From contig NW_027362763.1 of assembly GCF_046119375.1 (NCBI RefSeq), forward strand, positions 72,168,001-72,232,000: a stretch of DNA of 64,000 bases, given 5' to 3'. This stretch comes from Phyllobates terribilis (Eukaryota). The notes beneath the pieces are model-generated. The model saw nothing but the letters and a program-made list of their open reading frames with translations, searched no databases and was not told the origin of the DNA. This document shows positions 1-23,290 of this stretch, piece by piece. The position numbers and the translations under genes are program-made. The first letter of the stretch is position 1; each line of letters begins with the position of its first letter.

Positions 1-51
1 GAGATAGTGAAGCCTTGTTGTAATGCCTTTTAATAGGGTGACTGTACTTAC

Positions 52-538: not shown

Positions 539-612
539 CTGTGATGACGCCTCCAGCAATAGCGATAGCGAAGGTTGCGGCTAACGCAGCTCCTTGATAA
601 ACAGGATAATAG
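539..612 (-). CDS. RHAG: RHAG exon 8, copy 1 ([25 protein letters not shown])
   Basis: 74 bp, ttccag|CTA...CAG|gtgtgt; last TM helix, in frame with exons 7 and 9. Confidence 0.92.
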
Positions 613-773
613 CTGGAAAATGTAAAAAATATTGTTATTATGCAGCAATTGAGTTTTTTTGCATAAAAATTGATTGTATTGGACTGTTATATGTACAGGT
701 TTGACATCAGCCCCAGGGATACCAGGGTAGATTTCATGTCTGTTTGGGCTTGGAGATTTAATGGGAATCTTAA

Positions 774-1218
774 AGGGAATCTATCAGAAGGTTTTTGCTA
801 TTTCTTCTGAGAGCAGCATAATATAGAGCAAGAGATCCTGATTCCAGGGATATGTCACTTATTAGGCTGTTTGTTGTAGTTTCCATACAATTAGGGTTTT
901 ATCGCCAGGAAATTATCACTGACTAACTATGTCTCACATGCACAGCAGTCCAGCTAATATTTCTAACCCCGCCACCACCATTGATTGGCAGCTTGCTGAC
1001 AGTGTACACAAGAAGCTGCAAATCAGTGATGTGGGTGGGGTTATGCACAGTTCAACATTTTGAGCACTGTTAGATCTGCAGCAGAAAAAACAGGGACGCT
1101 ATCAAAACTGCACCAGGCAGCACGGTAAGTGACACATCACTGGAATCACAGTCTCTTGTCCTATATTATGCTGTTCTCAAATTTACGTACTATGCAAAAA
1201 TTCATTGACAGATTCCGT
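774..1218. mobile_element. T2-family (Kolobok-type) MITE; also 27578-28022 and 56166-56610
   Basis: TTAA on both sides; termini AGGGAATCTATCA / TGACAGATTCCGT. Confidence 0.85.
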
Positions 1219-1574
1219 TTAAACATAGAAAAACAAATATCTGTAGATAAATCTTTGTATTTAACCTGCTGTCAAATGCTTTACAAAAAAATCTGTCTCT
1301 ACTGCCACCTTTTATTGTTAGACTTAACAGAGAGCTAATTTGCATATCTTTTCCCATAATGCTCTCAAAATCAATTTTATCACCACAAGGAGAAGCAATA
1401 CCCCCTCCACCCCATGCCCGAGAGCTTAGATGGAGGCTTTATAATTAAGAGATATAAACATGAAGGTGAAATAAAGTAAATATCAAATAATTTATGATTA
1501 AAGAGTGATAAAAAGAAGAATAATTAATGATATATATTTACATTAATTTGGCCATACATGTGCTTGTTAATAAA

Positions 1575-2135
1575 AAAGAGCAAAGGGAGGAAAAAAATGC
1601 TAATGAGCCAAAACAATAATCGATGTAGAAAATGAACCTTTATTAAATAAAAACAATTATGGACTCGGCATGAGTCCAACTGTAAAAGAAAGACGTCACA
1701 TACGGGAGGTGAGTGTAGTAGGGCTGTAAACTAATTAACATAAGTAAAATAATCAGTGATAGTGAGTCAACTTACAAACCGCATACCCATAATTGTCCTC
1801 TTCTGCTGGAATGATGCCAGCACCGAAGTGCGTTTCGCTCATTGCCTTCATCTGGGGGTGGTGGTGCCACCCCAGCAAAAAGTTGTAGAAATATGAATCT
1901 CTGCTAATCAAACTTCTATATTTTGGAGTCATTTGGCCTTATATGCAATTTGTAGTCATGAGTCTAGTCCCAAACTGCCTTCAGCATCATGAGGCGAGAA
2001 GCATGGTGGCTACATGAACACAATTTGTCATGATGCCTTTAATTTAATGTTGTTCTCATTCTAAGAGCATGATTGTTTTTATTTAATAAAGGTTATTGAT
2101 TATTTTTTTGGGCTCATGAACATTTTTGCTCTTTT
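1575..2135 (-). mobile_element. Degenerate Penelope-like relic with hammerhead remnant (1821-1860), intron 7; repeated in copies 2 and 3
   Basis: Imperfect inverted repeats at about 1575-1660 and 2065-2135 flank ccccAGATGAaggc-aatga-gcGAAAC on the minus strand. Boundaries approximate. Confidence 0.5.
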
Positions 2136-2343
2136 GTGTTTCCCTTTTGGTTTGCCCTATACTTAGTCCTTTATTACATACCCTTAATTATATGTCACCA
2201 GACTTTCTACTATTTCTATAGTTTATTTTTTTTCCTAGAGAGCTTATTTGATTTATTCAGTGCACTTTAAATCCATGAGGAGATATGTCTGAATGCCGAA
2301 ATGATCAAAAATAATTTTTAGCATTGGAAGGAGAATTACTCAC

Positions 2344-2465
2344 TTGGGTTTTGCTCCGAGGGCTGTGGCCACAATGCCTGCGATCCCACCCATAATTCCT
2401 GGTAAACCGTGAAGATTGTGCACTCCGCATGTGTCCTGAACCCTGAGCTTGGAAGCAAAAATTGG
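2344..2465 (-). CDS. RHAG: RHAG exon 7, copy 1 ([41 protein letters not shown])
   Basis: 122 bp, ttttcag|CCA...AA|gtgagt; [13 protein letters not shown] motif with the second pore His. Confidence 0.97.
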
Positions 2466-2654
2466 CTGAAAGAGATAATGGGGATGAGAACAAAGTTAAT
2501 AAAGAGCAATTTTACGTAATGAAGTACTGAGCCAAATATTGTAGGGATCGGGGTAAAATTTGCATTCATAAAGTGAGCAACAAATGTCACCATTATTGTA
2601 CTTCTAAGAAACAAGCCTAAGACTTAATCAATGAAAATTTAGGTGTCAACTTAC

Positions 2655-2792
2655 AGTTAAGAACTTGAATCCCAGGGTAGAGATTATTCCTGCAATGAAC
2701 CCAATAATCATTGCGCCAAAGGGTCCAATGTTCATGTCAGCGCAGGTTCCTACCGCTACACCTCCGGCCAGAGTGGCATTCTGGATATGGAC
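2655..2792 (-). CDS. RHAG: RHAG exon 6, copy 1 ([46 protein letters not shown])
   Basis: 138 bp, tccag|GTC...ACT|gtaagt; [12 protein letters not shown] Rh signature. Confidence 0.97.
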
Positions 2793-3319
2793 CTGGATGG
2801 AACAAGTCAATGAGTGTGAGACCCCAGGCTTGCTGATTATTTAGATATCATCATGGTTGATATGTCACAATTTATTTTTCAAGGCACTAGTTTTCAAAAA
2901 TGTGAATTTAGTAATTATAGATGTCACTCAAGATTCCATTTTTAGAAGGATGGAATCCCATAACTTCTACTGCACAGTCAAACTTCTGTTGTGGCCAACA
3001 GGGAATAGGAAGCATTGGAGAGTCAAACTGGATCCACTATAGTCTACAGTTAAGGGGAGATTGAGCCAGTGTGAGATAGGAAGAGGTAGGGATATCCTGA
3101 TTTTTTTGGGATAAAAAAAAATTATGGGTAAAATTGCATAAAAAGAAAACATTCCCAGTACTGTAGAAAAACATATACATGTGAGAGCTTTTCCTAAATG
3201 TTTCAGATTACATCTCAGTCCTTACTCAGATTCCGTCCGAAACATGTAGGAAAAGCTCTACACACAACATAAGAGCGAGGGTGGCTTGTTTTTCTAAAAA
3301 AAAGTAGGGGGATCTCTGT

Positions 3320-3712
3320 GAACAGCATAATGTAAGGGCAGAGACCCTAATTCCAGTGATGTATCACTTGTTGGGTTGCTTGGTGTAGCTTTGGCAAAAT
3401 CACTGTTTTATCAGAAGGAGATTATCACCATATAGCTCTCAATATTCATGAGCTTTGAATAACCCCGCACCACCACTGATTGGTAGCTTTCTGCCTATGC
3501 ACAGTGTACACAGAAAGGTGCCAATCAGTCGTGAGGGCGGGGCTATACACAACTCAGAATTTAGAAAACTGGTAGATCTGCAGCAGAGGAAGCAGGAATT
3601 TTATCAAAACTGCAGCAAGCAGCCCCACAGGTGATACATCGCCATAATCAGGGTCTCTGCCACTACAACATAACCCTTTTTACAAAGCAAAAAACCTGCT
3701 TAAGGATTCATT
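3320..3712. mobile_element. T2-family MITE with decayed left end; also about 30124-30516 and 58712-59104
   Basis: Interior resembles 774-1218; right end agcaaaaaacctgcttaaggattcatt-TTAA. Left boundary approximate. Confidence 0.65.
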
Positions 3713-3800
3713 TTAAGTCTGTCTGACTAAGCTCTAAATATTATATATAAAATGTGTAGGGATCAGTAAGAATTGTGACATTATTTATGCAGTTTCTTAC

Positions 3801-3967
3801 CATATCAAACTTTCCTTTGTGTTCAACCAGACTGGAGAAGGCATAGGCAGTGAGCACACAGGCCGCCAGTGAGAAGTAGGTGTTAATAATGGCCATTTCC
3901 TGATCTGCTCCATGTTCGGCAATGGCAGAGTTGAAGCTTGGCCAAAACATCCACAGAAAGAGGGTTC
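3801..3967 (-). CDS. RHAG: RHAG exon 5, copy 1 ([56 protein letters not shown])
   Basis: 167 bp, ttttcag|GA...ATG|gtaaga. [13 protein letters not shown] and [13 protein letters not shown] match RhAG better than RhBG/RhCG. Confidence 0.97.
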
Positions 3968-4398
3968 CTGAAAATACATGAGTTTTCGACAACAATAACA
4001 TCTTTGTGAGTGAATTTCATTGCTTTATAAACGATATATTGATTGATTAATTTATACATTCATTCATTCTGTTAATTTATAAAAAAAAAACTGACAGCAG
4101 AGGAAAAAGAGTGTGCTGATCTTGTGGGGGAAGTGACCTTTTTCACAAATGTGGTTCTTTGAAGACATGGTTGAATATGAAAGGGACAATTCCAAAAAAA
4201 TGTGAGTGGTTACAATATAATTTACCCAGTGAAACTATAGAAATTGTTGTATTCTGATCTTACAGGAGAAAGTGACCTTTTCTGTAGAAAATAAGGTTAC
4301 ATATCACAGTGGCAATTTTGAGGCAGGAATACAATATGCTGAAGGCATAACATAAATAACTGTAGCTGCAACAGATGAGTTTACTGATCTTGCAGAAG

Positions 4399-4892
4399 AT
4401 GAACAGGGAAGAGCCACAAGGCTCAAAAAATGAGTGATCCAGCCTTTGTCAAGGGGTGTTCAAGGGGTGGAGACTATGTTCACACCCCTTGACAAAGGCT
4501 TGTTTGCCGAAACGCGCGTCGGGGCTGGCGCGCATGTGGCAGTGACTGAAGGGTAATCTATCCATTGACAGGTAGACTATGTTTCCGATATATGTCTGTT
4601 ATAAGTATAATATGTGAAGTAGTCATCAATTATGTACCTGTCATGGTAGTGATATCTAATGTGATTATATTTACCATACTTTAGATACTTACCCTTTGGA
4701 GTTTCAATTAACTTTTTCTCCCTTAATTACTGAGCGACTGTTTCCACTGTGAGCCCTATTTTAAATACACTCTGTGTTTTCTGTGTGTGTTCATACACTT
4801 ACTTTGTTATCATGTAATAAAATCTAGATATTTTGATACCATATTGTGCTGGATCACTCATTTTTTGAGCATTGTGGCTCTTCCCTGATCAT
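4399..4892 (+). mobile_element. Penelope-like pseudo-LTR insertion with inverted terminal copy; also about 31203-31696 and 59792-60285
   Basis: 45-bp inverted repeats 4399-4443 / 4848-4892 (2 mismatches), internal hammerhead motif, AATAAA at 4816-4821. Confidence 0.7.
4485..4524 (+). ncRNA. Minimal type I hammerhead ribozyme motif; also 31289-31328 and 59878-59917
   Basis: CCCC-UUGACAA-a-GGC(uuguuu)GCC-GAAA-CGCGCG-UC-GGGG. Stems I and II close, stem III is palindromic, GUC site at 4518-4520, core carries U3/A8 instead of C3/G8. Confidence 0.7.
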
Positions 4893-5710
4893 ATATCCCC
4901 TTATGATGATCCTCCTACAATTGAGGTCCTAGGTGGGCAGAGATGAAGTGCAACAAGTATGTTATAATAATATTGCCTAAATCTGTCAGATATCTCTCTC
5001 TGATCTTGCAGAAGGCAGTGGCCATTTCACTCACACAAGTACATGTGACAGTCACAAAATCAAGAAATGGGCAGGGAGGTATATTGTACCAAATTACTTC
5101 TCTATGGGAATTATTGTAGCAGCGGGAGATTAGTGATCTGATTTTATTGAAGGCAGTGACCAATTCACTCACGTGGTAATATGTGACAGGCTTAATATCA
5201 AAAAATGGTCAATGAAAGCATATACTCTATTCAATAAAACTATGGGAATTATTGAAGCAGCGGAAGGTTAATGTTCTGATCTTGTAGAAGGCAGTGACTG
5301 CTTTACTCATGTAGCCTTATGGGACAGGTATAGTATCAAGAAATCGCAGGGGAAACATATACTGTGTCCAATGAAACTATGGAAATTATTGTAGCATCTG
5401 GGGATTAATTTTCCACCCTTGCAGTAAACAAGTGATGGTAATTTACAAAGCTAAATACAGTTATGTGGCTTAGCAGAAAAGAGTGTGGTTTAGTGAGAAA
5501 GGGATGTGATTTTAATTTTTACTTTGCTCAGGCAAGATTATTAAACCTGCCTCCGTGACTTTTCTAATCTTTTGGTTATGTGACAGTTTCAAAAAGCAAG
5601 CAGAAATAAAATATGCTGTAGCCAATAAGAGCGTGAAAATTATTAAAGCAGCAGAAATGAGTATTCTGATAATATGGGCAGCAGTGACCATCGCACTCAT
5701 GTGATTGTGT

Positions 5711-6163
5711 ATTTAAAGACATACTGTTTGTATAGTTTTGAGAAGTAGATAGTGATCAAATATGCTATAGCTCACAAGACCATGGAAATTAATATAGCAG
5801 CAGGAGATGATTGTTCTGATTATATGGGAGGCAGTGACCAGTGATTTTATGGTTGTGTATTTAAAGACATACTGTTGGTAAAGTTTTGAGAAGTAGATAG
5901 TGATCACATATGCTATAGCCCATGAGACCATGGAAATTAATATAGCAGCAGGAGATGATTGTTCTGATTATATGGGAGGCAGTGACCAGTGATCTTGTGG
6001 TTGTGTATTTAAAGATATACTGTTGTTATAGTTTTGAGAAGTAGATAGTGATAAAAATATGTTATAGCCCATGAGACCATGTAAATTAATATAGCAGCAG
6101 GAGATGATTGTTCTGATCTTAAGGGAGGCAGTGACCACTCCAACCTTGTGGTTAGGTATTTAA
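5711..6163. repeat. About 148-bp tandem repeat in intron 4 (3 young units; degenerate units of about 139 bp extend back to about 4100); also 32515-32967 and 61104-61556
   Basis: atttaaag recurs at 5711, 5859, 6007, 6158; ctgat...gcagtgacc-like motifs recur from about 4116 to 5690. Confidence 0.9.
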
Positions 6164-6421
6164 AGGGTGCACAGCTTCAGGAGACCACAGCTTCAGGGGC
6201 ACAGCCCCTGCCTCCCAGCTTCCTACTTTTTGGGCTTCCAGTATGGTTGAGCCTCTGGCCTGAATTGTGCACTCTATTTAGCAGCGATTGAACCAAAATG
6301 AAATTGCTTGCAGTCCATTCTTGAAAATGGAGAGAAATTTTAATAAGAGATAAATTGCAAAGTTGCTTGGTTTTACAAGAAGGTTCAGATTTTACCCATT
6401 TATTAGGATAGGACAGCCCCT
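6164..6421. mobile_element. T2-type MITE inserted at a TTAA inside the intron-4 repeat; also 32968-33225 and 61557-61814
   Basis: TTAA at 6160-6163 and 6422-6425; right end GGACAGCCCCT; the repeat unit resumes after it (agagatactgtg...atatgctatagcc). Confidence 0.75.
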
Positions 6422-7640
6422 TTAAAGAGATACTGTGTGTACAACAGAAAGTGATAGAATATGCTATAGCCAATCAAACCAGGGAAAAAATGAATGATCT
6501 GATCTGAACTTTCTGGGGAAAATGACAGCATGTTGCTTGTTAGTAAGGACAGGGATGCAGGTGATGGGTTGGAACAGTTCAGAATGATTACTTTGGATCC
6601 CCCGGGTCCTTTCATCACACATTAACAAAATAACTTCACTTAATGACCATATGAACTTTAGATTTCACTAATAATTAAAATGTCGTGATTACCCTGACTC
6701 AGATTCATGTACCTGGGAAAGGGCTACAGCAAGACAAACAAAGGTGTACAAGAACGCTTGGCGAAACGTCAAGTATTAGATTGTGACCTTTTGTTTTACT
6801 TTCTGTGACTCTCCAGCCAAGCTGTCTTTCTAAAGAGCATGGTCTGGAGAGTTTTTATTAATTTTAAAGGAATATTCAATTGTCCTCAAATAAGGCGTAT
6901 TCATTGTAAAATAAAAAGTTATAGAATTTTCCAATATACTTTTTTAAAAAAAAAATTCCCATGGCATCGCCATGATGACAATATGTCAAATATGTCCATT
7001 TTTGTTGCTGATTTGTAATGATTATTTTGTTTTTACAAAGAGCAGTAAGAATTATTATTACAGCTGTTTTTCATTTTTTTTTTGTTACTTCAAAAGGAAA
7101 ACAAACCTATGACTTTTATTTTACCTCTACTATACAAGTATGCAAATTATATAAGAGATGTATTGGTACATAGAAATGTAAAGCTGCTGCCTGCCAAGCT
7201 ACAGGTTGTGAGTTTGAATCCTGTGGAAAACCTTCAAAAACAAATTGCAGAAACTGTTTAACTGCACGTACATTTCATTGCATGTCGTTTGTTCAATTTT
7301 CCAATAAATTGCATAGTAGAATGACTGGTGTCATCCAAAACTACAACTCGTCCTGCAAAAATATGCAAGCCTTCAATATGGCAATGTTGATGGAAAAACA
7401 AAGTTATGTATCTTGAAAGAAGGTTGGAAAAAAACAAAAGCACAAAAATGAAAAAATGCTCTAAACTAAGGGTTAAAATCTCGGTCATTAAAATCCTTTT
7501 TTAAAGTGTTTTTGCGCTTTTTTTTTTTTTTTCCTTCCTATCTTCCCATTGGCGTCCGACTATCTCTGACTACTTGGGTGGAGGGTGGACAGTGACTTAG
7601 TGACTTACAAAATAAAGATTTGTACATTTAGTTACTTTAC

Positions 7641-7788
7641 CAATCATTGCAAATAAATCAGAGTGATAAACAGAGCCTTCATGTTCATGTCCTTTTTTCA
7701 GTCCAGATCGATACAGTACAGCCGAAGCAGCCAGCCCGAAATAAGCTCCAAATGCATGGATGACCATAGATGCACCAATATCTGTCGC
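7641..7788 (-). CDS. RHAG: RHAG exon 4, copy 1 ([49 protein letters not shown])
   Basis: 148 bp, ttgcag|GCG...ATTG|gtaaag; [16 protein letters not shown] motif with the first pore His. Confidence 0.97.
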
Positions 7789-8242
7789 CTGCAAGATAAA
7801 AAGATTGGATGATGTTATATTTAAAGGGAATTTCCACTGAGACACATATCATTTATATACACATAATGCGCATTAAGAAGCAGAGTCACTATGAAAACAC
7901 CGTGCATTTCTGATCCTGAAATACAAATTGTGCTCTACTCAAGAGCTGCATTTACAATTCTGCAGTTTTCAGAACTGAAATCTCACAGCATTCCCTGTTG
8001 ACTACAGAGAGGATTATCTAGTGCATGGTTACATACATTAATCTATAAGACTATCGACATAAAAATATTATACAGGTTCAGACCATCATTGAATATTGAA
8101 AAATTATTTATAGAAAATGTTTAAAAATATAGAGAAAAATGTAGTCACAATGTCTACTATAGTATATTGATATAAATAGTACTGCCTCCAAATATCAGAA
8201 TGATGTATAGATAGCATTTTCTCACTGTCTTTCCAAATGAAT

Positions 8243-8671
8243 CATGTAGGCACAGATAGTACTGACTCCTTGTTTCTTTCTGTTTATCATGTAGGCACAG
8301 ATACAACTGAATTCATGTTTCTATTTTTATATAATGTAGGCACAGATAAAACTGACTTCTTTGCTTCTTTTTGTGTATTATGTAGGGAAAGATACAGCCA
8401 ACTCAGTACTGACTCCTTGTTTCTTTCTATTTATCATATAGGCACAGATACTACCAACTCCCTGTATCTTTATATATATCATGCAGGCACAGATTCAACT
8501 GACTCCCTGACCCTTTTTTCCATATCATGTAGGCACAGAGACAATTCACACCGTGTATATTTCTGTATATGATGTAGGCACAGACACAGCTGACTCTCTG
8601 TCTCTTTCTATATATCATGTAGGCACAGATATAACCAACTCCTTGTATCTTTTTTAATATCATGTAGGCAC
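8243..8671. repeat. About 45-bp minisatellite (core catgtaggcacagat), about 10 units, intron 3; also 35048-35476 and 63634-64000
   Basis: Core at 8243, 8288, 8333, 8379, 8435, 8480, 8526, 8571, 8616, 8661; the last unit is cut at catgtaggcac by the hAT end. Confidence 0.95.
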
Positions 8672-11634
8672 TACTGATGAGCGAGCACTAAAATGCTCGG
8701 GTACTCATTGTTCGTGTCGAGCAAATTGGAATACTCGGGTGCTCGACCCGAGCAACGAGCCCAATGTAAGTCTATGGGAAACTCGAGCATTTTTCAGGCG
8801 ACTCCCACCGGTGGTCTTCAGAGGGCCTAAAAATTGCCAAAATCGATGGGAACAGTGCTCAATTGACATGGGAACAGCATGGGGAAGACCCCTGGAAGCA
8901 TTTCGGACTCCCAGGTCACTGCTGTCAACAATGTTGTCAGAGGTATTACGCCACTTTTACGGACTCACAATAAACATGCAAATACAAAATCAAAATGGAT
9001 TTTCCGGGGAAATATGTTAAGGAACATCCTTTCCAGGGTATATAAGGCAAAATAAATATGCAAAAACAAAAATACTCCTCCACACCTTCGGCTATGTTCA
9101 CATGTAGCGTTTTTGATGCATTTTTGCACTTTTATATTGCTTTCAACCAAGACAAATGCATTCACTGGGAATTGTCAAGTGGGTCTCCCATACTGTTATT
9201 CCGTATGCAGTGACTGCAAGGGCTTCAAAAAATGTGGATGCAACCCAATACCACTTTGAAGAGACATAGAGGAGGGTCTCAGTAAAAAAATGTTCCCATT
9301 ATAAAGAAGCCAATCTCCTATAGTGGTAATGCCCATGCTGTGACTGCAATGGCTGCCAAAATTTAGGAAAAACCCCACTAACAATTTAAAGACACATAGA
9401 GCATGGCCAAAGTAACGAGTACGACATGTTCCCTTTAGAAAGGAGAGGGTCTGCTATTCAGTTATAGGGTATGCAGTGAAGCAACGGCTGCCAAAGATTT
9501 GGAGGAACTCCAATGCCCCGTGAAAGAGACGTAGAGGTCGGAGGACCTCCTGCAAAAATGCTCCCATTATTAGGAAGTGGGTCTCCCATACTGTTTGCCT
9601 ATGCAGTGAAGCAACGACTGCCAAAAATATGGAGGAACTCCAATGTCCCTTATAAGAGACATATAGGTCAGAGGGCCTCCTGCAAAAAATGCTCCCATTT
9701 TTAGGAAGTGTGTCTCCCATACTCTTTGCTTATGCAGTGAAGCAAGGGCTGACAAAAATTTGGAGGAACTCCAATACCCCTTGCAAGAAACATAGATATG
9801 TTGGTGATATGGTGGTGGAGGATGAGGATGCAGAGAAGGAGGAGGACAATAGCAAATAGACAAAATGAGGAAGAATATACCCATGTCTGGGTGTGAAGAC
9901 GTAGGTGCATGGGAATAGAGTTAGACCTCTCAAAAAAAAGACACTGTATTTCAGCTTATCTTACGCTGCTATCATTCAGTGGTGTTGAGAATTCTGGCCA
10001 AATCCAGCCCTTGTTAATTTTTATAAGAGCCAGCCTGTCAGCATTTTCAGTTGACAGGCAGATGCACCTATCAATTATAAATCCACCAGCGGCACTAAAA
10101 ACCCGCTCTGACCAAACGCTAGCGGAAGGGCAGGCCAGGACCTCCATGGCGTAGAGAGCCAGTTCATGCCACGTGTCCAGCATGGATACCCAATAATTAT
10201 AAGGCACAGAGGAATCACGGAGGATGTTGCACGGTAGGCAAAGTACTCCCTCACCATCTTCCGAACTTTTCCTTCCTTGGGAGAATATCCCGAGCCTCAG
10301 GGCCTGTGCGATGGGAGGGTCTGAGAAAACTGTCCCAGAACTTTGACAGTGTTCCCCTGCATTTTTCTGGATTGCATTTCTGTCTCTCTTGCCTGCTGTA
10401 CTCCTTGGTTTTCCAATGAACTGTGACCTCTGCCGCCAGCGTTTTCAGATGGGAATTTTTTTATTAATTCCGCAACAAGGGCCTTCTCATACTGCCCCAT
10501 TTTATTAGGCCTGTCCTACAAGGGAATAAGAGACAGAAAGTTCTCCTTGTAGCATGGGTATAGAATTGTCACCAACCGGTAATGACTGTCACCCAAAATT
10601 TGGACAAAGCAAGGGTCACGGGAAAGGCAGCGTGACATAAACTCAGCCTTGTGTGCCAGATTGCAAAGAGACAAGACTTCTCTGTCCTCACCAAGAGGAC
10701 AACTGGCCTTGCTCTCCTCCTAATCCTTCTCCTCTTCCTCCTCCTCCCTGTCCTCAGGCTATCCATGCTGAACAGATGTTATGACAGTTGTGCAGGTAGT
10801 ACGGTCTATAGCACATTGTCACCCAATCCTCGTTGGGATGAGATGAGGCTGGGCTGTGTGTAATCACCCTATATTGTTCCTTGCTCCAGCTCATCATGCT
10901 CTGCCTGCAATGCATCCTCTTAAATTGTGAGCAGAGAGCGTTTCAGAAGACAGAGAAATGGGATGGTGACGCTAATTATGAAGTCATCGCTGCACACCAT
11001 CTTGGTGGAGTCCTCAAAGCTTTGGAGGACGGTACAAATGTCTGACATCCATGTCCACTCTTGAGGTTTCATGTGTGGAGTCTGACCTGAACACCGACAG
11101 CCTTGTTGATGATGGTAGTCAACAACTGCCCTCTTCTGCTCACAAATCGTTCCCAACAACTGCAATTTAGAGTTCCAAAGCGTGGGAACAACGAAGATGC
11201 AAGGGCGCTGGAAGCTGTAGCTGACTTTCTAAGATGGGCACACAGGCGGCATACTTTGACAAGCAGATTGGACATATCCGGATAGGTTTTGAGAAACTGC
11301 TTAACCACGAGGTTAAGCACATGGGCCAGACATGGTACGTGTGTGAGCTCGCCGCACCTCAGAGCCGCCACCAGTTTCCCGCATTGTCACACATGACCAT
11401 GCCTGGCTGTGGGGTCAGAGGTGTCTGCCACAGATCTGCCTGCTCTTTCAGAGCTGTCCACAACTTTTCAGCGTTGTGCGGCTTGTTGCCTAAGCATATT
11501 AGCTTCAGCACAGCCTGTTGCCGCTTGGCCGAGGCAGTGCTGCAGTGCTTCCAGCTTGCGACTGATTTGGTCATTTCGGAGATGGAGGCTGAAGAGGAGG
11601 AGGAGGTGCAGGAGCTGTAGAATGTGGGGGCAAC
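8672..11634 (-). mobile_element. hAT-A: 3' part of a decayed Ac-group hAT transposon (TIR, subterminal repeats, C-terminal transposase); also 35477-38436
   Basis: TIR TACTGATGAGCGAGCA at 8672. Frameshifted fragments MCDNAG, THVPCLAHVLNLVV (CxxH) and LACPSASVWSERVFSAAG (catalytic E / dimerisation domain). Confidence 0.9.
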
Positions 11635-12050
11635 TGTTCGAATTTATGTTGTTCTACTATTGTTGTGGTTTGCTGGCTTCTAGTCTTTTCCTCTGGTGCT
11701 TGGTGTCTTGTTCACATGATCTCTTCACTCTTTATTATTCAGCACCTGTCTCCCATTCCCCGCTGGACATCAGTGTTGTTACGCTTGTGCTCTGGCTAAG
11801 TTGCCTTGTTTATTTTGTTTGTTCGTCTGTCTGCTACTATTTCTGTTAGGAGGTGTCCATTTTGCTCCCAGTCCCTAGTACTTGTAGGGATTCCTTCCCC
11901 ACATCTATAGGTCTCCGTACAGACTAGCTTAGGACTTTAGCAGGTCTGATCGCAGGATCAGGTTCCCCGTTACATCGTAGGGATCAAGCTGAGTTCTATC
12001 GTAGGGACAGCTCTCCTCTCTTTCCTTAGCTTTGGTAGCAGAACATAACA
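11635..12050. mobile_element. Solo-LTR-like segment (416 bp, TGTT...AACA) without TSD; also 38437-38852
   Basis: hAT homology stops at ggggcaac(t). The segment ends cataaca. Flanks gcaac / ctttc do not match. The second occurrence starts TATT rather than TGTT. Confidence 0.6.
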
Positions 12051-12346
12051 CTTTCAATGCTGGCAAACAAGAGCCATGCAGTACAGCATATTCAAAACAT
12101 TATTCCCATTATTGGGGAGTGGGTCTCCCATAGTCTTTGCCTATGCCTTCCAAGCAAAAGCTGCCAAAAATTAGGACGGAGGAACTTGCAATGCTGACCA
12201 CGGTCACCCTGGTGGTATAGTGGTGGTGGAGGCTGAGGATAAGGAGAAGAGCAAAATACAGCCGAAATGAGAAAGCGTATACCCATGTGTGGGTGTGAAG
12301 CGGTGCATGGGAATACACGTCCCGAAATAACACAGTGGATTTGACT

Positions 12347-15300
12347 TTATGTTACTTTGCTGTCATTTGGTGGTGATGAGAAGTCTGGCCCAATCCAGCC
12401 CTTGTTCATTTTGATAAGGGTCAGCTTGTCAGCATTGTCAGTTGACAGGCGAGTGCACTTATCAGTTATAATTCCCCCAGCGGCACTAAAAACACGCTCC
12501 GATAACAAGCTAGCGGCAGGGCAGGCCAGGACCACCAAAGCGTACAGAGCGAGTTCTTTCCAAGCGTCCAGATTGGATATCCAATAATTAAAAGGCACAA
12601 AGGAATCACGGAGGAAGCTGGTACGGTCGGCAAGGTACTCCCTCACCATTTTTTGAAAGTTTCCATTCCTTGTGAGAGTACCCCGCGCCACAGGGCCTGT
12701 AAGCTGGGTGGGTCTCAGAAAACTGTCCCAGAATGTTGTCAGTGTTCCCCTGCCTCTGCTGGATTGGAGTTGCATCTCTCTCACCTGTACGCCTTGGTTG
12801 GTCAACGAACTGTGACCTCTGCTGCTAGCGTGTTCAGATGGGAATTTTTTTAACAGTTCTGCAGCAAATGCCTTCTGGTACTGCACATTTTTGTAGACCT
12901 ATCCACCTCAGGAATAAGAGAGTGAAAGTTCTCCTTGCAGCGGGGGTCTAAAAGTGTCATCAACTAGTAATGACTGTCACCCAACATTTTGAGAACGCGA
13001 GGGTCACGGTTAAGGCAGCGTAACATAAAGTCAGCCATGTGTGCCAGACTGGTAACGGGCAAGACTTCCGTGTTCTCCATAAGATGATCACTGACAATGC
13101 TCTCTTCCTCCTCCTCCTTCTACTCCTTCTCCCCCCTGTCCTCAGGCCACGCTGAACCAACGGTATGACAGTTGTACAGGTACTACCGTCTACAGCGCAT
13201 GGTACCAGCTACTGTTCTTACTCCTCCTCCTCCTCTCCCTCATTGTCCCCCAATGCACGTTGGGATGAGATGAGGCTGAGCTGTGTTTAATCGCCCATTA
13301 CGGCTCCTTGATCCATCTCATCATACTCTATCTGCAATGCCTCCTCTTTAATTCCCTGCAGAGAGCGTTGCAAAATACAGACATCTTGGTGGACTCCTCA
13401 AAGTTTGTCAGGATCGTACATATGTCAGATATCCAGGTCCACTCCTGAGGTATTATGTGTGGAGTCTGACCTGAATATTGACGGCCTTGTTGCAGCTGGT
13501 ACTCCACAACTGCTCTCTTCTGCTCACAAATCCTTTGCAACATGTGGAGGGTAGAGTTCTAAAGTGTGGGGACATCACACACCAGTCGGTGTGCCGGAAG
13601 CTGCAAACGCTGCTGCAACACAGCAAGGGCAGTGGAAGCTGTCGCCGACTTCCGAAAATGGGCTGACAGGCGGCGCACTTTGACGAGCAGATCTGGCAAC
13701 TCGGGGTACAATTTAAGAAACTGCTGAACCACGAGGTTAAGCACATGAGCCAGGCATGGTACGTGTGTGATCTCGCCTCGCCTCAGAGCCGCCACCAGGT
13801 TACTGCCATTGTCACACATGACCATGCCTGGATGTAGGTTCAGCGGTCTCAGCCACAGATCTTCCTGCTCTTTCACAGCTCTCCACAACTCACAAGCAGT
13901 GTGAGGTTTATCACCTAAGCTTATGAGTTTCAGCACAGCCTGTTGTCGCTTGGCTGAGGCAGTACTGCAGTGCTTCCAGATTGTAACTGATGTGGTGATA
14001 TCTGAGATGGAGGCTGAACATAAGGAGGAGGAGGATGATGCGCAGGAGCTGTACACTGTGGGGCAACTCTGACTGACATAGGGCCCGCAATCCTCGGTGG
14101 GATGATGTGTTCCATCCCAAAGTACGACTGGGTCCTGACTTCCACTATGTTTACCCAGTGTGCCGTCAGGGAGATGTACCGTCCCTGGCCACAAGCACTT
14201 GTCCACGTGTCCGTTGTCAGGTGTACTCTCCCAGTAACTGCGTTGTTGAGGGTATGGCAGATGTTTTGGGACACGTGCTTGTGTAGTGCGGGGATGTGTC
14301 GGCTGGGGACCGAGTACTGAGGGACGGCCACCGCCATAAGGTTGCGGAAGGATTCCGTCTCCACCAGCCTAAAAGGCAGCATTTCCAATGCAAGCAGTCG
14401 TGAAATGTGCAAATTTAGGACTGTGGCTGTGGGGCGTTGGCTGCGAATTTGAACTTTCATTCAAAGCTCTGGGATATGGACAATTGAACGCTGCGGTGCA
14501 TCATGCAGTATGGACAGGGGATTGCCTTGCAAGCTCAACAGGGGGTTCTCTTACATGCACAACAGCGGAAGAAGCAGTGGTGACACCCGCTGACACTGGT
14601 TGTGGACCCGGGGGTTTGCCCCACAAAGTCGCGTGCTTTGCTGACATGTGCCTGATCATGCTGGTGGTTGTCAGGCTGGTAGTTTTGTCACCCCTGCTGA
14701 TGCTGGTATGGCAGGTTTTACAAATGTTCTTTTTGGTGTTATCAGCAGAGTCTTTAAAAAAATTCCAGACCCTGGAAGACCTACCGGTTGTACTGGCAAC
14801 GTCCCTCATGTTGGTGTTACGGGGAACTGTTGCCCGCCTTCTGTGTGCGGCCACCACACTGCTTCTTCCTGCCTTTTGGGGTGCTCTGCCTCCCCCCTCC
14901 CACATGTGCTGCTGGCCTCACTCTGCGTGTCCTCCTGCCACGTTGGGTTAGTTACTAGATCATCCACCACCTCCTCCTCTTCCACTTGCGCACCACGATC
15001 CTCCTCCTCACTTCGTGACAATTGCGTCTCGTCATCGTTCACCTCTTGTGACAAATTGCCAGCGTCGACTTCCTCTGGCCGTGGTTTTTCAAATATTTGG
15101 GCATTGCTACATGGGATCTCCTCTTCCACCACTATAAGCGTAGGAGGCGAGGGGCCCAAAAATATGGAAATGGACCAGTGAACAGCTCTTCAGAGTGTCC
15201 AAGTGTGGGATCCGTTGCTGTCTGACGACACTCGGCATGGTGGGAGGAAGGAGCATCAGGGTGAGGAGGAGTATGCTGTCGAGACTCACGGCTACTAAAA

Positions 15301-15596
15301 CTTGACAGTGTGGAAGACAGACCGGAGGTGGTGGTGCCCAGGTAACTGGAAGTATTATCTGCTATATGATTAATAACCAGTTCACACTGATCAGTTCGCA
15401 ATACTGGTGTTGTAGTTTGCTTCCCTAGTAATTCGGTCAAGAAGTGGGAGCGAGAAGATGTGGCTGTTGGCTTTGGCACATTTTCACCTTGATCACGGCC
15501 CGGTCCTCTACACGCACCATCACCAGAACGTCCAGTTCCACGTCCCTTGCCACGCGCCTTGCCCATTGTAAATGAAGTAAAATAGCTTACACTCAC
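12347..15596 (-). pseudogene. hAT-B transposase pseudogene (BED zinc finger + DDE + dimerisation domain); also 39149-42398
   Basis: ORF fragments 15132-15596, 14806-15159, 14501-14905, 13930-14460, 13559-14206, 13328-13543 and 12347-12886 tile a transposase in changing frames. Confidence 0.9.
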
Positions 15597-15668
15597 ACTA
15601 CCAATGAAAAAAGGGAAATAAAAAGGAGATTAGTACCATGGAAGAGGAAAACCACTGTTCTATTTCTC

Positions 15669-16760
15669 TGGCCTACACCAGAATATTTTAAACAGATATA
15701 ATTGTGTCTGAACAGTCAGGGAGACAATATTACTATTTTTTTATGTAAAAAAGGCCAAAAGCTGGATAATACAGAGATTTGAACCGTGCAACTGCAAAAC
15801 CAAACTTCTAGTTATCTGGCCTACACCAGAATATTTTAAACAGATATATTTGTGTCTGAACAGTCAGGGAGACACTATTACTGTTTTTTTTATGCAAAAA
15901 AGGCCAAAAACTGCATAATACAGAGATTTGAACCGTGGAACTGCCAAACCAAACTACTAGTTATCTGGCCTACACCAGAATATTTTAAACAGATATATTT
16001 GTGTCTGAACAGTCAGGGAGACACTATTACTGTTTTTTTTATGCAAAAAAGGCCAAAAACTGCATAATACAGAGATTTGAACCGTGGAACTGCCAAACCA
16101 AACTACTAGTTTTCTGGCCTACACCAGAATTTTTTAAACAGATATATTTGTGCTTGAACAGTCATTGAGATACTATTACTGTTTTATTAATGTAAAAAAG
16201 GCCAAAAGCTGGGTAATACCGAGATTTGAACCGTGCAACTGCAAAACCAAACTTCTAGTAATCTGGCCTACACCACAATATTTTACACAGATATATTTGT
16301 GTCTGAACAGTCAGGGAGACACTATTATTGTGTTTTATGTAAAAAAGGCCAAAAGCTGCATAATGCAGAGATTTGAACCGTGGAACTGCAAAACCAAACT
16401 TCTAGTTATCTGTCCTACACCAGAATATTTTAAAAATATATATTTGTGTCTGAACAGTCAGGGAGACACTATTACTGTTTTTTTTATGTAAAAAAGGCCA
16501 AAAGCTGGATAATACTGAGATTTAAACCGTGGAACTGCAAAGCCAAACTTCTAGTTATCTGGCCTACACCAGAATATTTTAAACAGATATATTTGTGTCT
16601 GAACAGTCAGGGAGACACTATTACTGTTTTTTTATGTAAAAAAGGTCAAAAGCTGGATAATACAGAGATTTGAACCGTGCAACTGCAAAATCGAACTTCT
16701 AGTTATCTGGCCTACAACAGAATATTTTAAACAGATATATTTGTGTCTGAACAGTCAGGA
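15669..16760. repeat. About 148-bp tandem array inside the hAT-B 5' region (about 7.3 units); second occurrence 42471-45349 has one extra unit plus the Tc1
   Basis: tggcctacac-like motif at 15669, 15817, 15966, 16115, 16264, 16411, 16560, 16708. Confidence 0.95.
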
Positions 16761-18136
16761 GGACGCTCAATTTTTTTTGGGGGGGCCGGGGAAATACCAA
16801 AAGGTTAATAAGACATGTATTTGTACAGTCTGACTGAGGGAAAAAAATACAGGATTTAGATGAAAAAAAAATAATTTTTCCTGGCCCCTGAGACCGGGGG
16901 ATAAGTCTAGCAATTTGACCAACAGGAGCACACAGGACTGTAATGCAGTGTTTGTTGGTATAACCACTGCATCTCCTATACAGCCAGCCTGCCTGCCTGA
17001 TATCTGGGATGGATATTATTCCTGAGAAGGACTGTTTGTTTGATTTGGTAGGCTTTAGAGACCCTGCACTAACTATTTTGCAGTATAAATCTCTCCCTAG
17101 CTATGGAGCACTGACCCTACACTGTCTGATCCGGAGCGACTGTGTCCAAGATGGCGGCGCTGGGTTGTAAATACTCGTGGTGATGCTGTGCGGCCAGCCA
17201 ATCACTGTAATGCCCACAAACAACATGGCTGTGGCATTACAGTGACTGGCTGGCAATCCCTGCATGTTCATTGGCTCTGTAAAGAGCACCAAATGTGCAG
17301 GGCGGAGACCCGAGCTCCTGCCCGAGTAACCCGGAAATGCTCGGTGCTCGCCGAACATCCCGAGTAGCGAGTTGCTCGGCGAGTATCGAGCAGTGTTGAG
17401 CATGCTCGCTCAACACTAATTATTACTAGAAATGAGAGAACATGTTCGGAAAATGTTTGTTTTTTTCAAATTTGGCATGAACATTGCACATTCAGATTCG
17501 TGATCGGACACCAGAGTGTTTTTACTGAAAATTGGTCCAATTTAGCCAAAGTGCGGTAAATGATTGTGTTTCCATGACTGTAATTTTTATGACTTTGGCC
17601 AGGATAGTAGTGTGCTGTATGATGAGCGAAGGGGGGGTGGGGGAAGATGTGTTTGATGAGGGGACGGGTGAGGACAGGTCAGATTATCGGAGGGCTGTAA
17701 ATCTTATTTTTTTTTCTTCTTAACCTAATGTATGCAGATTCCGACAAGCCAATCAGGGTGCAGGAACCATTCACAATGTCCAGACATAAGGGCTTGTGCC
17801 ATTGGCTGCTGAAGTCACATGTCCCTCTCCACATAAAAAGTGGACATGTTGTTTTAGTGCCATTTTACCAGTGTAACAGCGCAGAGAGGCTGGTCCTGGA
17901 TACTGAGATATTGACGTAGTTATCTAGGCAGTTGCTTCTAAGTCAGATAGTTTAGATAGATAGGATCCTGTGTGGATGTGAAATTGACCTTCCAACATAG
18001 TAGTGTGGTCCAGATGGAAATAACAAGCCACACACATTTCAGCATAGAACTCTTTTGAGCTGATATAGTGCTCCATGCAGGAGTACACCTTTGAAATTAT
18101 TTTTTTCTGTTCCTACTTTGCTATATAAAGTAGGTC

Positions 18137-18760
18137 ACATCTGAGCTTGCAATTTATTTGCGCATAGATTCAGCAGTATCCAGAACTCATCCAAAGTAAA
18201 AAAAAATCTAATTTCATCTGTTACTACAGTGATACTCACAGAAGGCCAGATCTCAGCTTGCAATTTTTTGGCGCATATATTCTACTGTATCCAGGCCTCA
18301 TCCATAGTAAAAAAAAACTCTAATTTCTTCTGTTACTAATGTGATACACACAGCAGGCCACATATGAGCTTGTAATTTATTGGCGCATATATTTTACTGT
18401 TTCCAGGCCTCATCCACAGTAAAAAATCTAATTTCTTCTGTTATTAACGTGATACATACAGCAGGCCACATCTGAGCTTGTAATTTTTTGGCACATATAT
18501 TCTACTCTGTCCAGGCCTCATCCACAGTAAAAAAAAAAATCTAATTTCTTCTGTTACTAACGTAATACATATAGCAGGCCACATCTGAGCTTGTAAGTTT
18601 TTGACGCATATATTCTACTGTATACAGGCCTCATCCAAAGTAAAACATCTAATTTCTTCTGTTACTGACGTGATACATACAGCAGGCCACATCTCAGCTT
18701 ATATTTTTTTGCATCTGAGATTCTACTGTATCCAGGGCTCCACAGTAAAAAATCTAATTT
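18137..18760. repeat. About 111-bp tandem array in the hAT-C 5' region; also about 46726-47348
   Basis: cacatctgagcttg...gcatatattctactgtatccaggcctcatcca repeated about 6 times. Confidence 0.9.
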
Positions 18761-21700
18761 TTTGTTGCTATTAGAGTGCTCCAACCACACTATCTGAGCA
18801 ACATGAGTGTGAAAAATCGATGTCGTGGTGGAAGGAGGAATAGGCTTGGTGTTCAAGGTCTATGTGGGGTATGTGCTAATATTAGTGAAAGCTCTAGTGA
18901 ACCAACACCTTCACATTCTATCCAAAGACAACTGACAACTTATATTACTGGATGGGCTACTAAACTCTTTTTCTTCGGCAGCCACACAGCGGTACGCCTT
19001 GTAGATTAGGGCCAGAAAGAGCATGCGCTGCATCAAGTGACCTCTCCTCCTCTTATACCACCTCAACATCACACACAGTACAGTCCTCAGAGGTGGCACA
19101 GCAATTACCCTTGTTTAGTCCCTCATTACCACTCTCCAACTGCCTAGGTGACTGTAGGGAACCACAGATGGGCGAGTTTGCAGAGCTGTTCACACATTCT
19201 ATGCAATGGGCATCAGAGGTCTACTCCAAAGATTCACAGACTCATGAGGAGGAAAATATCTGCACAGATGGCCAAAATTTTTTTTCTGTTAGATCCAGGG
19301 CAGCAAGAAGTAGGATCCGAACAGAATCCTGACCCTTGTCACCAGATGTTAACCCCTGGGGGAAAAGTTGATCCTGATGAGACTCAGATACCTGAAGCAC
19401 ATGTGGATTATACTGTGCTGTCAGGGCAAAAAGAGAAGGAGGGTTACTCCCAGGGTGAGGAAAGGGAGAACAGAGAGGATGATGATGAGGTTGTAGATCC
19501 CACTTGATGTGAACCCAGAGGCACACAGCTGAGTAGGAGGAAGATGAGGAGGTTACGTTGCAGTTTCCCGTACAGACACTAGTAATGCAAACATTACAAG
19601 CACTGCATCCTCAGCCACAACTCTGGCTGTGGCCAGCACCAGTCGAGGGTCTGCAGCTTGCAGGGGGGGGGGAGGGTTGCATAGCCTGCGACTTAAAACT
19701 GCAAAGGATGAGCCAACTCACTTAATCTGCCAACTTTGCAAAAATGACTTAGTACAGGCAAAAATTGCAAGAATTTGACTACTACATGCAAGAATCGGCA
19801 CATTTACGATCAACATGCATTAGTCTGGCAATCTCAATGAGATAAAATGCGGACCAGTGGGCATCCCCAATCATTGGCCACCCTATCAATAGCATCTTCT
19901 GCTTCTTCCTCCTCTGTCACTGTGCCAAGTGTTGTCACACAGTTTTCCAGCCACAGAACCTCCACTTGTTTACTGACTCCAGTGAGGCTGAGTGAGAGCC
20001 CGTCAGCTGTAATGGAAGTGGACATGCCTGCTGTTTTTGCTTCACCGAGCACACCACATCTTTCTCAATCCACCGTAACATCTCCGCCTTCACCTGCACG
20101 TCACGGTGGTGCATTTTGTCATGTTCACCCTACTTCATCCTCTTTCAGAAAAGCAGCCAGTCCTCAGTCCCGAAGTTGTGGTCATGTAAAAGTTTGTTTC
20201 ATTCTACACATGATTAAGCTAAATGGTTGAACTCCACCATCTCCAATCTGTTGGCCATGGAAATTCTGCCTTTCCAAATGGTGGATACAGACAGTTTCTG
20301 AAAGCTGATGGCTATTGCAGTCCCCCAGTACTAGTTGCCCAGTCACCATTATGAAATCTGTGCCTGTGGTATACCATCATTAAGAAATCTGTGCCTATGA
20401 TACACCAGCATGTCACAGACAACATCACCCGTTCCTTGACTAAATCTATGTCTGCCAGAGTGCATTTCACCACAAACACCTGGATGAGAAAACATGGCCA
20501 GGGGCATTTTATCTCGCTGACTGGACACTGGGTGACTCTGATGGCTGTGGGGGTAGGCAGGGATGGGGCTTCTCCACAAGTCTTGGAAGGCTTGCGGGAC
20601 AAACTTCTGTATCTAACCATAACTCTAATGCTTATGCATCCTCCACCTTCTCTAGGGCCTCCACATAAGCCTTCAACCTATGCCTTAATGAAACACACAT
20701 TTCAACAGTGCAGAGAAAATCAACACAACCTCCGTACTGCGCAGCCAGGGCTCACCGCAATCAGGCAGTCTTAAAATTAATATGTCTTGGAAATCGCAGT
20801 CACACAGGTCAGGAGTTGTGGACAGCTCTCCAGGCTTAGTTTGAGCAATGGCTGTCTCCACTGAACCTGGAGCCAGGGAAGGCAATTTGTGACAATGGTG
20901 CAAACCTGGTGGCGAACCTACACTGGGGCATCCTCACACATGTGCCTTGCATGGCTTACATCCTCAACCTGGTGATACAGCAATTTCTCTGCCACTATCT
21001 CGGCCTGGATGCGCTGCTGCAGAAAGTAAGGTCACTGTATGCTCACTTCCCCACAGGTCATCGACTTGTATCGATACAGAGGTCTTTGACCATACCACCA
21101 GCTCATAGGAGATGTGCCAAAACAGTGGAATTCCACTCTGCACATGTTGTAGCAACTGTGGCAGCAGCGGTGAGCTCTGATGCAGTATCTCATGTCGTGT
21201 AGCCTGGGCCAGCGCAGTATGGACGTGATGCAAATCACGTTTGCGGAGTTGGTAGAGATTAAAAACCTCTGCACCCTTTTGCAGAGTTTTAAAATGACTA
21301 CTAAGATGGTTAGCAATGACGATGCTTTCATCAGCATTACTATTCCAGTCATCTAAATGCTGGCGCACACTTTAAATAGTATTCAAGAGGAGGCGATGGT
21401 CCTAGAGGAAGAGGAGAAAGTAGAGGAAGATGCAGAAGGGATAACGATGTCTCAGAGTTACACACTGTCATTACACAGACGGGTGTTTTACAGCGATCGA
21501 GGAGGGCTCGTGTTACCAGACAAACTGTTAGTGAAGGTGCAGTAGCATAGGAACAAATGGAGGAGGACGAGGAGGAAGAAGTGATGGGCGGGCAACAGTC
21601 AGGAGATGAAGAGGATAATGATCCATTCTCTGGTTGGCGGTAGGGGATGGAGGAAACAAGCATCAGTGTTACCCAGCAACCAAGACACCATAGGCTTGGA

Positions 21701-22539
21701 CCTCATGGAAGAGCCTGACACACAAGCTCCTTCTTGCTGCACTATCCGCAACATGATCCTCATATAGTTAGAATTTGAAATATTGCTGACTACTGGATTG
21801 CCAGTCTGTTATATCCACATTACAAGAGTAAATTTTCCAGATGCTTACCACCCTGAAAAGGGACCCGCGCAAGTTGGAATATCGAAACACGTTTTTAGAT
21901 CACCTAAAGGGAGGTTTTCCCTAAGACAGCAGTGAGGAACACAGTGTGCATCATAGCTCTAGATCTCCAACAAAGGGAATGTCAATTTGTCAATGCAAAA
22001 ACATTAGCAGCAGCAGAAGCAGTGTAAGTGTCAGAACCAATTTCTGTAAGTTCTTTCACACATTTTTTAGGCCAGCTCGTGCACCAGCACAACAGAATAC
22101 AAGTCTGACACATGGTGAACGACTGGAGAGGTTGGTGCAGGAGTATCTTAAGCTCAATATCATTACCATCAGAGAGGCTTTGGACCCTTTTACAATTTGG
22201 TCTTCAAAAATGGACGAGTGGCCTGAGCTCACCTGTCATGCTTTGGAGGTTTTATCATGCCAAGCAGCCAGCTTTCTCTCAGAACGTGTCTTCAGCACTG
22301 TTCATGGTGTCCTGATGGATAAGCGCATCCAGCTGTCCCCTGAAAGAGCAGACTGCCTAACTTTCATAAAAATGAAGAAGCCAAGGACTTTTACACCCCA
22401 ATTGCAGACTGTGCAGACTAGTAGATGGTGTATCTTTTAGTGTGCTGCATTGATCTCGCGTTATTGCAGTCTGTGATAGCTCTGCCTTGGCTTCTGTGCC
22501 TGCTGTTGCTGCTGTTGATGTCTGCCCATAATTGTTTAA

Positions 22540-23290
22540 AATGTGGAGACTCCTGATTGGGTTTCAATCTGCTGGGTGTCAGTCCTCCATTATACTATTT
22601 CTACTCTGGTGAAATTGATGCCACTTTTGTGGTGTCTGCCCATAATTTTTGGAAATGTGAAGGCTCCTAGTTGGGTCTCAATCTGCTGGGTTGGCTATAG
22701 TGGAAGAGGTGTCAGTCTTAATTATACTATTTCTACTCTACTGTAATTAATGCCACTTTGGTGGTGACTGCCCCTAATTTTTTGAAATGTGGAGACTCCT
22801 GATAGGATCTCCATATGATATGTTTTTTGCAGTGGAAAGGTACCAGTCCCCATTATACTATTTCTACTCTGGTGAAATTGATGCGACTTTGATTGTGCTT
22901 GCCCCTAATTTTTTGAAATGTGGAGACTACTGTTTGGGTCTCCATCTGGTGGGTTGACTGGAGTGGAAGGGTGTTGGTCCTCCATTATACTAGTTCTAGT
23001 CTGGTGAAATTGATGCCAGTTTCATGATGTCTGCATCAAATTTTTTGAAATGTGGAGACTACTAATTGGGTCTCCATCTGGTGGGTTGGCTGTAGTGGAA
23101 AGGTGTCGGCCCCCCATTATACTAGTTCTACTCTGGTGAAATTGATGCCACGTTGGTGGTGTCTACCCCTAATGTTTTGAAATGTGGAGACTCCTCATTG
23201 GGTCTCCATCTGATGTGCTTTTAGTAGTGGAAGGGTGTCAGTCCCCATTACACTATTTTTACTATGGTGAAATTGTGGTATCTGACCCTA
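22540..23290. repeat. About 130-bp tandem array in the hAT-C 3' region; also about 51129-51879
   Basis: aatgtggagact...cattatacta...ctggtgaaattgatgc repeated about 6 times. Confidence 0.9.

Follow-up and report, generated by a model that had tools for sequence, protein, structure and literature searches.

A mosaic LTR at the joint of a transposable element-mediated tandem duplication carrying RHAG exons 4-10 in a frog genome

A 416-bp segment lying between two incomplete hAT transposons in the genome of the frog Phyllobates terribilis is a weld of two distantly related chromovirus LTRs, which share a strand and flank exons 4-10 of the RHAG gene. It occurs twice in the window, the whole 64,000-nucleotide stretch of DNA analyzed here (G000:C3:72168001-72232000 of an assembly of 10.57 Gb, or ~10.6 Gb, representing a TE-rich genome). 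The array that it joins is a real and fully traceable tandem duplication mediated by transposable elements (TEs) and followed by non-allelic homologous recombination (NAHR), and thus belongs to the known class of TE-mediated rearrangements (TEMR). The locus is an unusually complete natural record: still readable are both parental LTRs and both target site duplications (TSDs), as well as the seam and the trace of a later crossover.

Composition of the array and its seam

The window was extended by 100 kb per side; extended coordinates are below 0 or above 64000, and adding 72168000 to any coordinate gives its C3 position. Self-comparison revealed a tandem array, in which 3-15846 corresponds to 26808-42655 and 15697-35414 to 44286-64000 at 99.6-99.8% identity. 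The three units, the two copies of the seam, the parental LTRs and the associated elements are located in Table 1.

Table 1. Features of the array, in window or extended coordinates
Feature	Coordinates	Strand	Description
Unit U1	-17826..11810		29.6 kb, starting 17.8 kb left of window; in-window part 1..11810
Unit U2 (middle)	11811..38612		26.8 kb; recombinant, its left 22.3 kb from U3 and its right 4.3 kb from U1
Unit U3	38613..67216		28.6 kb; in-window part 38613..64000; its exons 4-10 come after exon 3 of the intact gene
Junction J1	11635..12050	+	mosaic LTR, 416 bp, TGTT...AACA; flanks GCAAC / CTTTC, one TSD half per parent site
J1 5' part	11635..11810	+	bases 1-176, from right parent; 175/176 identical
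J1 3' part	11811..12050	+	bases 177-416, from 3' LTR of left parent; 236/240 identical
Junction J2	38437..38852	+	same seam, second copy; 415/416 identical to J1
Left parent	-22553..-17587		outside window (G000:C3:72145447-72150413); full-length Ty3/Gypsy chromovirus, 4,967 bp, CTTTC on both sides
3' LTR of left parent	-18004..-17587		source of junction bases 177-416
Right parent	67041-67482		outside window (G000:C3:72235041-72235482); 442-bp solo LTR in hAT-A, GCAAC on both sides
hAT-A	8672..11634	-	3' terminus to mid-transposase; TIR ~8672; Dimer_Tnp_hAT; cut at LTR insertion site; former RHAG intron 3
hAT-B	12051..17418	-	subterminal repeats to right-hand TIR; broken transposase with zf-BED and Dimer_Tnp_hAT
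RHAG exons 4-9, U1	52..7788	-	exon 10 at -1450..-1379, left of window; open frame, one V>A in exon 8
RHAG exons 4-10, U2	25364..34593	-	open frame, AG/GT sites intact, identical to U3
RHAG exons 4-10, U3	53952..63179	-	part of complete gene
RHAG exons 3, 2, 1	~83.1 k, ~114.4 k, ~162.5 k		extended coordinates; once each, right of array
Second-crossover interval	34170..34635		465 bp; contains U2 RHAG exon 4 (34446-34593)

An initial annotation of the sequence had described a TSD-less TGTT...AACA segment set between halves of two hAT elements, and this is what J1 comprises. hAT-A ends with GGGGCAAC (11627-11634) just before it, and hAT-B begins at 12051 with CTTTCAA, inside its 131-bp subterminal repeats and with no terminal inverted repeat (TIR). 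The two flanks are unmatched, though 5-bp TSDs are the rule in both parental LTR families; J1 is not a single-family solo LTR with a matching TSD. Alignment places a clean switch from right-parent to left-parent sequence at 11810/11811, confirming the mosaic of both parents that had been predicted. The sole difference of the 5' part from the right parent, at 11639, is common to J1 and J2, while the four mismatches of the 3' part reflect changes found in the left parent's 3' LTR alone, all 25 of the other copies agreeing with the junction.

The seam has a single origin. A 28-mer spanning it matched only J1 and J2 across 10.57 Gb (two matches with at most one mismatch; a control pattern gave 0), and the chimera was absent from unrelated loci, where its presence had been named in advance as evidence against a duplication breakpoint. 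When the genome was searched with all 416 bp and 40 of 2245 candidates were scored, two matches were full-length (11635-12050 and 38439-38852), 37 spanned only ~177-416, and one (1-284) lay just right of the window. It is hardly credible that the segment belongs to a recombinant LTR family older than the array, or that it arrived whole as a composite hAT-LTR-hAT element: nothing was found in its favor save that both halves belong to abundant repeat families, and it is opposed by the confinement of the 28-mer to the two junctions, by the scored matches, of which just two span the entire segment, and by the presence of both parents, TSDs included, at the ends of the array. In four of 24 listed public runs (X2, X3, X5 and X11; none of the 24 is listed as RNA) searched over 11300-12400, whose short contigs are swamped by repeat copies, no bridging of 11810/11811 with 31 letters on each side occurred among the 32 pieces listed, besides which there are 87,797 further ones; loose ends left of 11811 in three of the runs were ordinary family LTRs diverging there. 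At 11639 the junction-type and the parental base are each present in run X2, possibly derived from the assembled animal, consistent with a sample having both borders.

Both ends of the array were as predicted. At the right end hAT-A is interrupted by an LTR with a GCAAC TSD and resumes beyond it, the empty site matching hAT-B and a third hAT copy. At the left end an LTR with a CTTTC TSD occurs in hAT-B, as part of a whole element. The proposal of one LTR in hAT-A and another in hAT-B therefore stands as to location, and the right parent is indeed a solo LTR, but the left parent belongs to a full-length element, of which it is the 3' LTR. For the two predicted 5-mers (GCAAC and CTTTC) both to match by chance has a likelihood of roughly one in a million.

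The left element sits in the subterminal repeats of hAT-B, its empty sites matching other hAT copies, and has the attributes of Ty3/Gypsy elements: TG...CA LTRs, a 5-bp TSD, a polypurine tract before the 3' LTR, and Pfam matches to protease, RT, RNase H, integrase, SH3 and chromodomain in PR-RT-RH-IN order with the chromodomain C-terminal. No env was found by Pfam in this element. Its reading frames are broken; between its two LTRs there are seven differences in 418 columns, in addition to a 4-bp insertion. Among 27 loci of its family an exact TSD was present in four solo LTRs and six LTR pairs, including the left parent itself; in the right family, nine of 29 loci are solo LTRs with an exact 5-bp TSD. 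Both halves of the junction thus derive from real LTR families, bearing out the LTR identity initially assigned. Since pol of the right family is 64-88% identical to that of the left parent in four of four loci tested, with matches extending into the chromodomain stretch, the parents represent related subfamilies.

A crossover with the 5' LTR of the left element, followed by solo-LTR formation, was considered and rejected. The junction is nominally nearer to that LTR (1 versus 4 mismatches) but agrees with the 3' LTR at the two sites where they can be told apart: the junction does not have a 4-bp insertion confined to the 5' LTR, and at one position junction and 3' LTR share the minority letter.

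Formation of the seam

The parental LTRs are identical at 273 of 389 ungapped columns (70%), with a longest exact run of 15 bp. Their 3' parts align far above shuffled sequences (score 115 versus a maximum of -34 in 100 shuffles) and their 5' parts barely so (-7 versus a maximum of -8), the join being situated at the left edge of the collinear block. Microhomology at the seam is 0 bp: the join is blunt, skips ~5 nt from an otherwise in-register match, and is adjoined by a 4-bp shared word. The right parent has a 45-bp deletion, the left edge of which falls exactly at the seam position between two CTTGTT words; this deletion is private (one match genome-wide, and none in 25 usable family copies). 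When 23 undeleted right-family copies were used to count register (six of 29 being left out for length), the first base contributed by the left parent (L3 position 179) aligned 5-6 columns past the right edge of the deletion in 18 and 11 columns past it in five. Landing by chance within 5 nt of register has a probability of ~2.5%, and within 10 nt of ~5%, in a T-rich region that leaves the register uncertain by 5-10 nt.

The right parent is further altered 20-40 bp past the seam, where a patch of seven substitutions and a 5-nt insertion (LTR positions 198-218) makes its 177-229 stretch the most changed among 25 copies compared; no 9-12-mer local template for this scrambled patch was found within ~750 bp or in a family copy. 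An unrelated 9-bp deletion is common to the right parent and the junction, indicating that this parent had decayed before the duplication. We also considered a deletion hotspot in the right-parent family and rejected it as query bias, 15 of 29 copies being gapped near the seam when the deleted LTR served as query and one of 25 usable copies when retrieved with the 3' part (four of 29 dropped from that set: three with a mis-called 5' end and one of another 5' type).

Attributes of a TE-mediated duplication are evident in the location of both breakpoints in directly oriented, related TEs, with a chimeric TE at the junction and its parents at the ends of the span. Those of classical NAHR are lacking for this first event, in which the flanks do not overlap in register, microhomology is nil, and the longest run, 15 bp, falls short of the >100 bp of perfect identity cited for NAHR in mammals in PMC9675761. 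The seam agrees with the TEMR-NHE pattern: microhomology <5 bp, flanks that do not overlap, and partners diverged by 15-30% or more. The rule given in that source assigns joins with neither microhomology nor overlap to the non-homologous class, in which we accordingly place the first event, and joins of diverged repeats with 0-5 bp of microhomology are described there. Alus diverged by 15-30% steer end joining to their vicinity, a process termed homeology-influenced NHEJ in PMC4356517.

The structural inference of the initial annotation is right, and its mechanism needs correcting: rather than sister LTRs undergoing a plain unequal crossover, the partners are members of two subfamilies, only ~70% identical and sharing no long exact run, welded bluntly 5 nt off register. 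We consider it probable that a homeology-guided weld at the solo LTR was succeeded by a younger unit-to-unit crossover. The 45-bp deletion in the solo LTR would have come first, marking the left edge of the collinear block at which the join was resolved; a broken end at this LTR in hAT-A would then have been joined, guided by the ~70% similarity, to the Gypsy 3' LTR in hAT-B ~29 kb away, duplicating everything between the two LTRs. The pathway, we infer, was homeology-influenced end joining or a template switch and not a RAD51-type crossover. Deletion before duplication is the favored order because a near-register landing is then natural, whereas simultaneity makes the landing site a second coincidence.

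That simultaneous order is embodied in an unlikely alternative, in which a single break in the solo LTR left two scars: its left end would have joined the Gypsy 3' LTR and the 29-kb unit been copied, the break then being closed with the 45-bp microhomology deletion, so that deletion and duplication are one event. The coincidence of the left edge of the deletion with the seam, between the CTTGTT words, speaks for it, as do the restriction of the deletion to the right parent and the heavily changed adjoining stretch. Against this, a broken end still carrying the 45 bp would have lain 50 nt out of register, but the landing site is the homologue of the right edge of the deletion, and seven TGTT words were available in the 3' LTR; the shared 9-bp deletion, moreover, indicates a right parent already in decay before the duplication. 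We regard as similarly improbable an unequal crossover in which the LTRs exchanged in register at a short word common to both beside the seam, 5 bp being lost later. Such an exchange would be compatible with the shared strand, the related families, the landing within 5 nt of register and the rebuilding of a full-size LTR (416 versus 418-442 bp). It is disfavored by an identity and exact run far below what PMC9675761 cites for mammals, by the zero microhomology of the seam, and by the need for an additional deletion, itself lacking microhomology. The preferred reading, a homeology-guided weld, has a counterpart in its reciprocal product, which would delete RHAG exons 4-10.

Unequal recombination between LTRs is the reciprocal of solo-LTR formation and leaves LTRs with unmatched TSDs and flanks from two insertion sites; it usually involves near-identical LTRs of one family and is usually scored as a deletion. 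The TSD-less LTR described here is comparable, but the identity of 70%, the blunt seam, the duplication product and the persistence of both parents in place are different. The non-homologous class of TEMR in PMC9675761 is alike in having both breakpoints in related same-strand TEs, a chimeric TE at the join and microhomology <5 bp; median partner similarities are 82.6% for HR-type and 59% for NHE-type events, against 70% here, and higher-order amplification is also reported, including a triplication flanked by homologous TEs. That study concerns human Alu and LINE-1 pairs, the word LTR being absent from its main text, whereas two chromovirus LTR subfamilies of a frog are the partners here, each nested in a hAT element, and what resulted is a tandem duplication of 29.6 kb that includes exons. 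Homeology-influenced NHEJ or in-register MMEJ between diverged Alus (PMC4356517) is alike in that 15-30% divergence shifts repair from recombination to end joining near the repeats and yields a near-register chimeric element; its reporter scores deletions only, whereas a duplication calls for either a template switch or an exchange involving sisters or homologues, and the sources consulted do not describe the process in amphibians. The present case indicates that LTRs only ~70% alike can seed a 29.6-kb duplication of part of a gene, the seam then feeding ordinary copy-number gain, and that an apparent solo LTR lacking a TSD can be a duplication breakpoint, a caution for annotation.

Origin of the third unit

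The initial annotation invoked one event, and one event does make the seam, but an array of three units needs a second, younger crossover. At 153 sites either U1 or U3 stands alone; the ratio of odd U1 to odd U3 letters is 127:11 left of 34170 and 2:13 right of 34635, a switch of class with Fisher p 9e-11 and matched by none of 300 permutations. On the left U2 differs from U3 by 0.12%, on the right from U1 by 0.09%, while U1 and U3 differ by 0.62% on the left and 0.35% on the right. Between its two neighbors, the middle unit switches identity once, the mosaic form that NAHR produces. A later, ordinary unequal crossover between two ~28-kb units, in or beside exon 4, would have generated U2 together with J2 and, judged from sequence divergence, would be several times younger than the seam itself. 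This step resembles NAHR between tandem segmental duplicates (99.5%-identical units of 28 kb, two copies becoming three, a mosaic middle unit) with no difference of substance.

It is quite unlikely that the third unit is an artefact of assembly, two 2-unit haplotypes having been threaded into three, and the duplication itself would be real in that case too. Compatible with such an error are the distance of U2 from its templates, only ~0.1% and in the range of heterozygosity, and its mosaic form, which a mis-join would also give; in run X2, junction- and parent-type letters at 11639 stand at ~11.8 to 8.9 contig depth, nearer 1:1 than 2:1 (one contig, crude depths), and the private change of J2 at a neighboring site is absent from the X2 listing. 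Opposing it are the absence of any N in the 264 kb of window and extensions, the brevity of the 465-bp switch interval, which has informative sites on both sides and could be phased by any long read, and a 1.79-kb deletion specific to U2; X2 possibly represents another animal, in which a two-unit allele would be a copy-number polymorphism.

With three true units and two successive events, some features of U1 are nevertheless not accounted for by a simple two-step history. Its divergence from U2 and U3 is uneven, at 1.7% at the seam, 0.9-1.2% in hAT-B and 0.4% in the gene (11811-17418 compared with -17826..-9384), and polarized hAT-B changes are skewed toward U1 (22 of 32, or 22:10; p 0.05). 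Exchange between diverged homologues, or later replacement of the left end of U1, may explain this pattern.

A 1.64-kb element having 277-bp terminal inverted repeats between TA dinucleotides, which we take to be Tc1/mariner-like, is present in the 149-bp repeat array of hAT-B at 42653-44288 in U3 and at -12590..-10955 in U1. Both this element and roughly one unit of the repeat, 1.79 kb in all, are missing from U2, consistent with a recent deletion between the repeats on either side.

RHAG exons and the surrounding elements

An RHAG exon of the window matches Pfam Ammonium_transp, and the closest named proteins are those annotated as frog 'ammonium transporter Rh type A' (95-100% identity). 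As had been proposed, exons 4-10 are multiplied, occurring three times, while each of exons 1-3 occurs once; assembly-wide, exon 5 is present three times, besides one 72% paralogue. All three sets of exons 4-10 retain open frames and AG/GT sites, U2 and U3 being identical over 795 nt and U1 differing by one V>A. No signal of selection was detected in the extra exons (one change in 795 nt versus ~3.2 expected from the surrounding rate, p 0.17). The complete gene, comprising exons 1-3 and exons 4-10 of U3, is intact. The two extra sets lack promoter exons and most likely represent passengers, lending the case modest biological weight.

Exons 4-9 total 723 nt, or 241 codons, with phase 0 at the start of exon 4 and the end of exon 9, and the copies are arranged head to tail, sharing the strand of the gene. 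There is accordingly a slim chance that the extra exons are used, by skipping of exon 10 and in-frame splicing of U3 exon 9 to exon 4 of U2 and U1. This would produce an RhAG with the C-terminal half of its channel repeated once or twice, a concatenated Rh/Amt protein arising from the LTR-to-LTR weld of two retrotransposon subfamilies. No paper on partial RHAG duplication in frogs or on this locus appeared in the literature listings searched, which cover few subscription papers.

The C-terminal half of the hAT transposase is present twice, as initially noted: 9684-11635 aligns to 12095-14068 with 74% identity over 2053 columns, and both halves match Pfam Dimer_Tnp_hAT. By its domains (zf-BED and dimerization domain in hAT-B, dimerization domain in hAT-A) the transposase is Ac/hobo-like with a BED finger. 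The claim that the start of hAT-B matches about 9140 of hAT-A reflects a 7-letter coincidence, collinear homology beginning at 9684/12095. The outer flanks of the hAT halves differ (GTAGGCAC versus ATTATTAC). Matching 8-bp TSDs of the parental hATs were not recovered in the array ends and extensions: the far TIR and TSD of the parental hAT-A were not found within ~95 kb, and the left TIR of the parental hAT-B is degenerate, with a non-matching flank. Because the parents too are without recoverable matching TSDs, the mismatch of the outer flanks is not diagnostic either way; the single event proposed to explain both TSD mismatches does so for the LTR flanks, and the hAT mismatch has no bearing on it.

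The parental hAT-A stops just beyond the transposase start (~69020, L041), the rest of the 45-bp minisatellite surrounding it not being found within ~95 kb, and an older deletion or rearrangement probably removed its far end. Flush against the right TIR of hAT-B, on the opposite strand and in all three units, is a hAT-like element (17427-23471) with a perfect 8-bp TSD (ATTATTAC). The left part of hAT-B (-34828..-22554; L037, L038) consists of stacked nested insertions, among them an inverted hAT with a near-perfect 8-bp TSD (-28555..-24571) and a 5-kb insert bounded by 1.26-kb direct repeats (-34180..-29158), likely another LTR element. A further piece of the hAT-B family, 91% identical, lies ~60 kb left of the array (-76206..-71964, L033) and consists of the 5' half with its 149-bp array expanded.

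Members of the LTR family of the left parent also occur in RHAG intron 2 (89575-89797, 91289-93940 and 106372-106612; L043, L045), one of them continuing into 2.6 kb of internal sequence (95%); these copies are further same-family substrates for rearrangement within the gene. Elsewhere, family copies with identical flanks (L017/L018 at C5:448433558 and C5:443714600, L057/L058, and L111-L113) point to other segmental duplications or to redundant contigs in the assembly.
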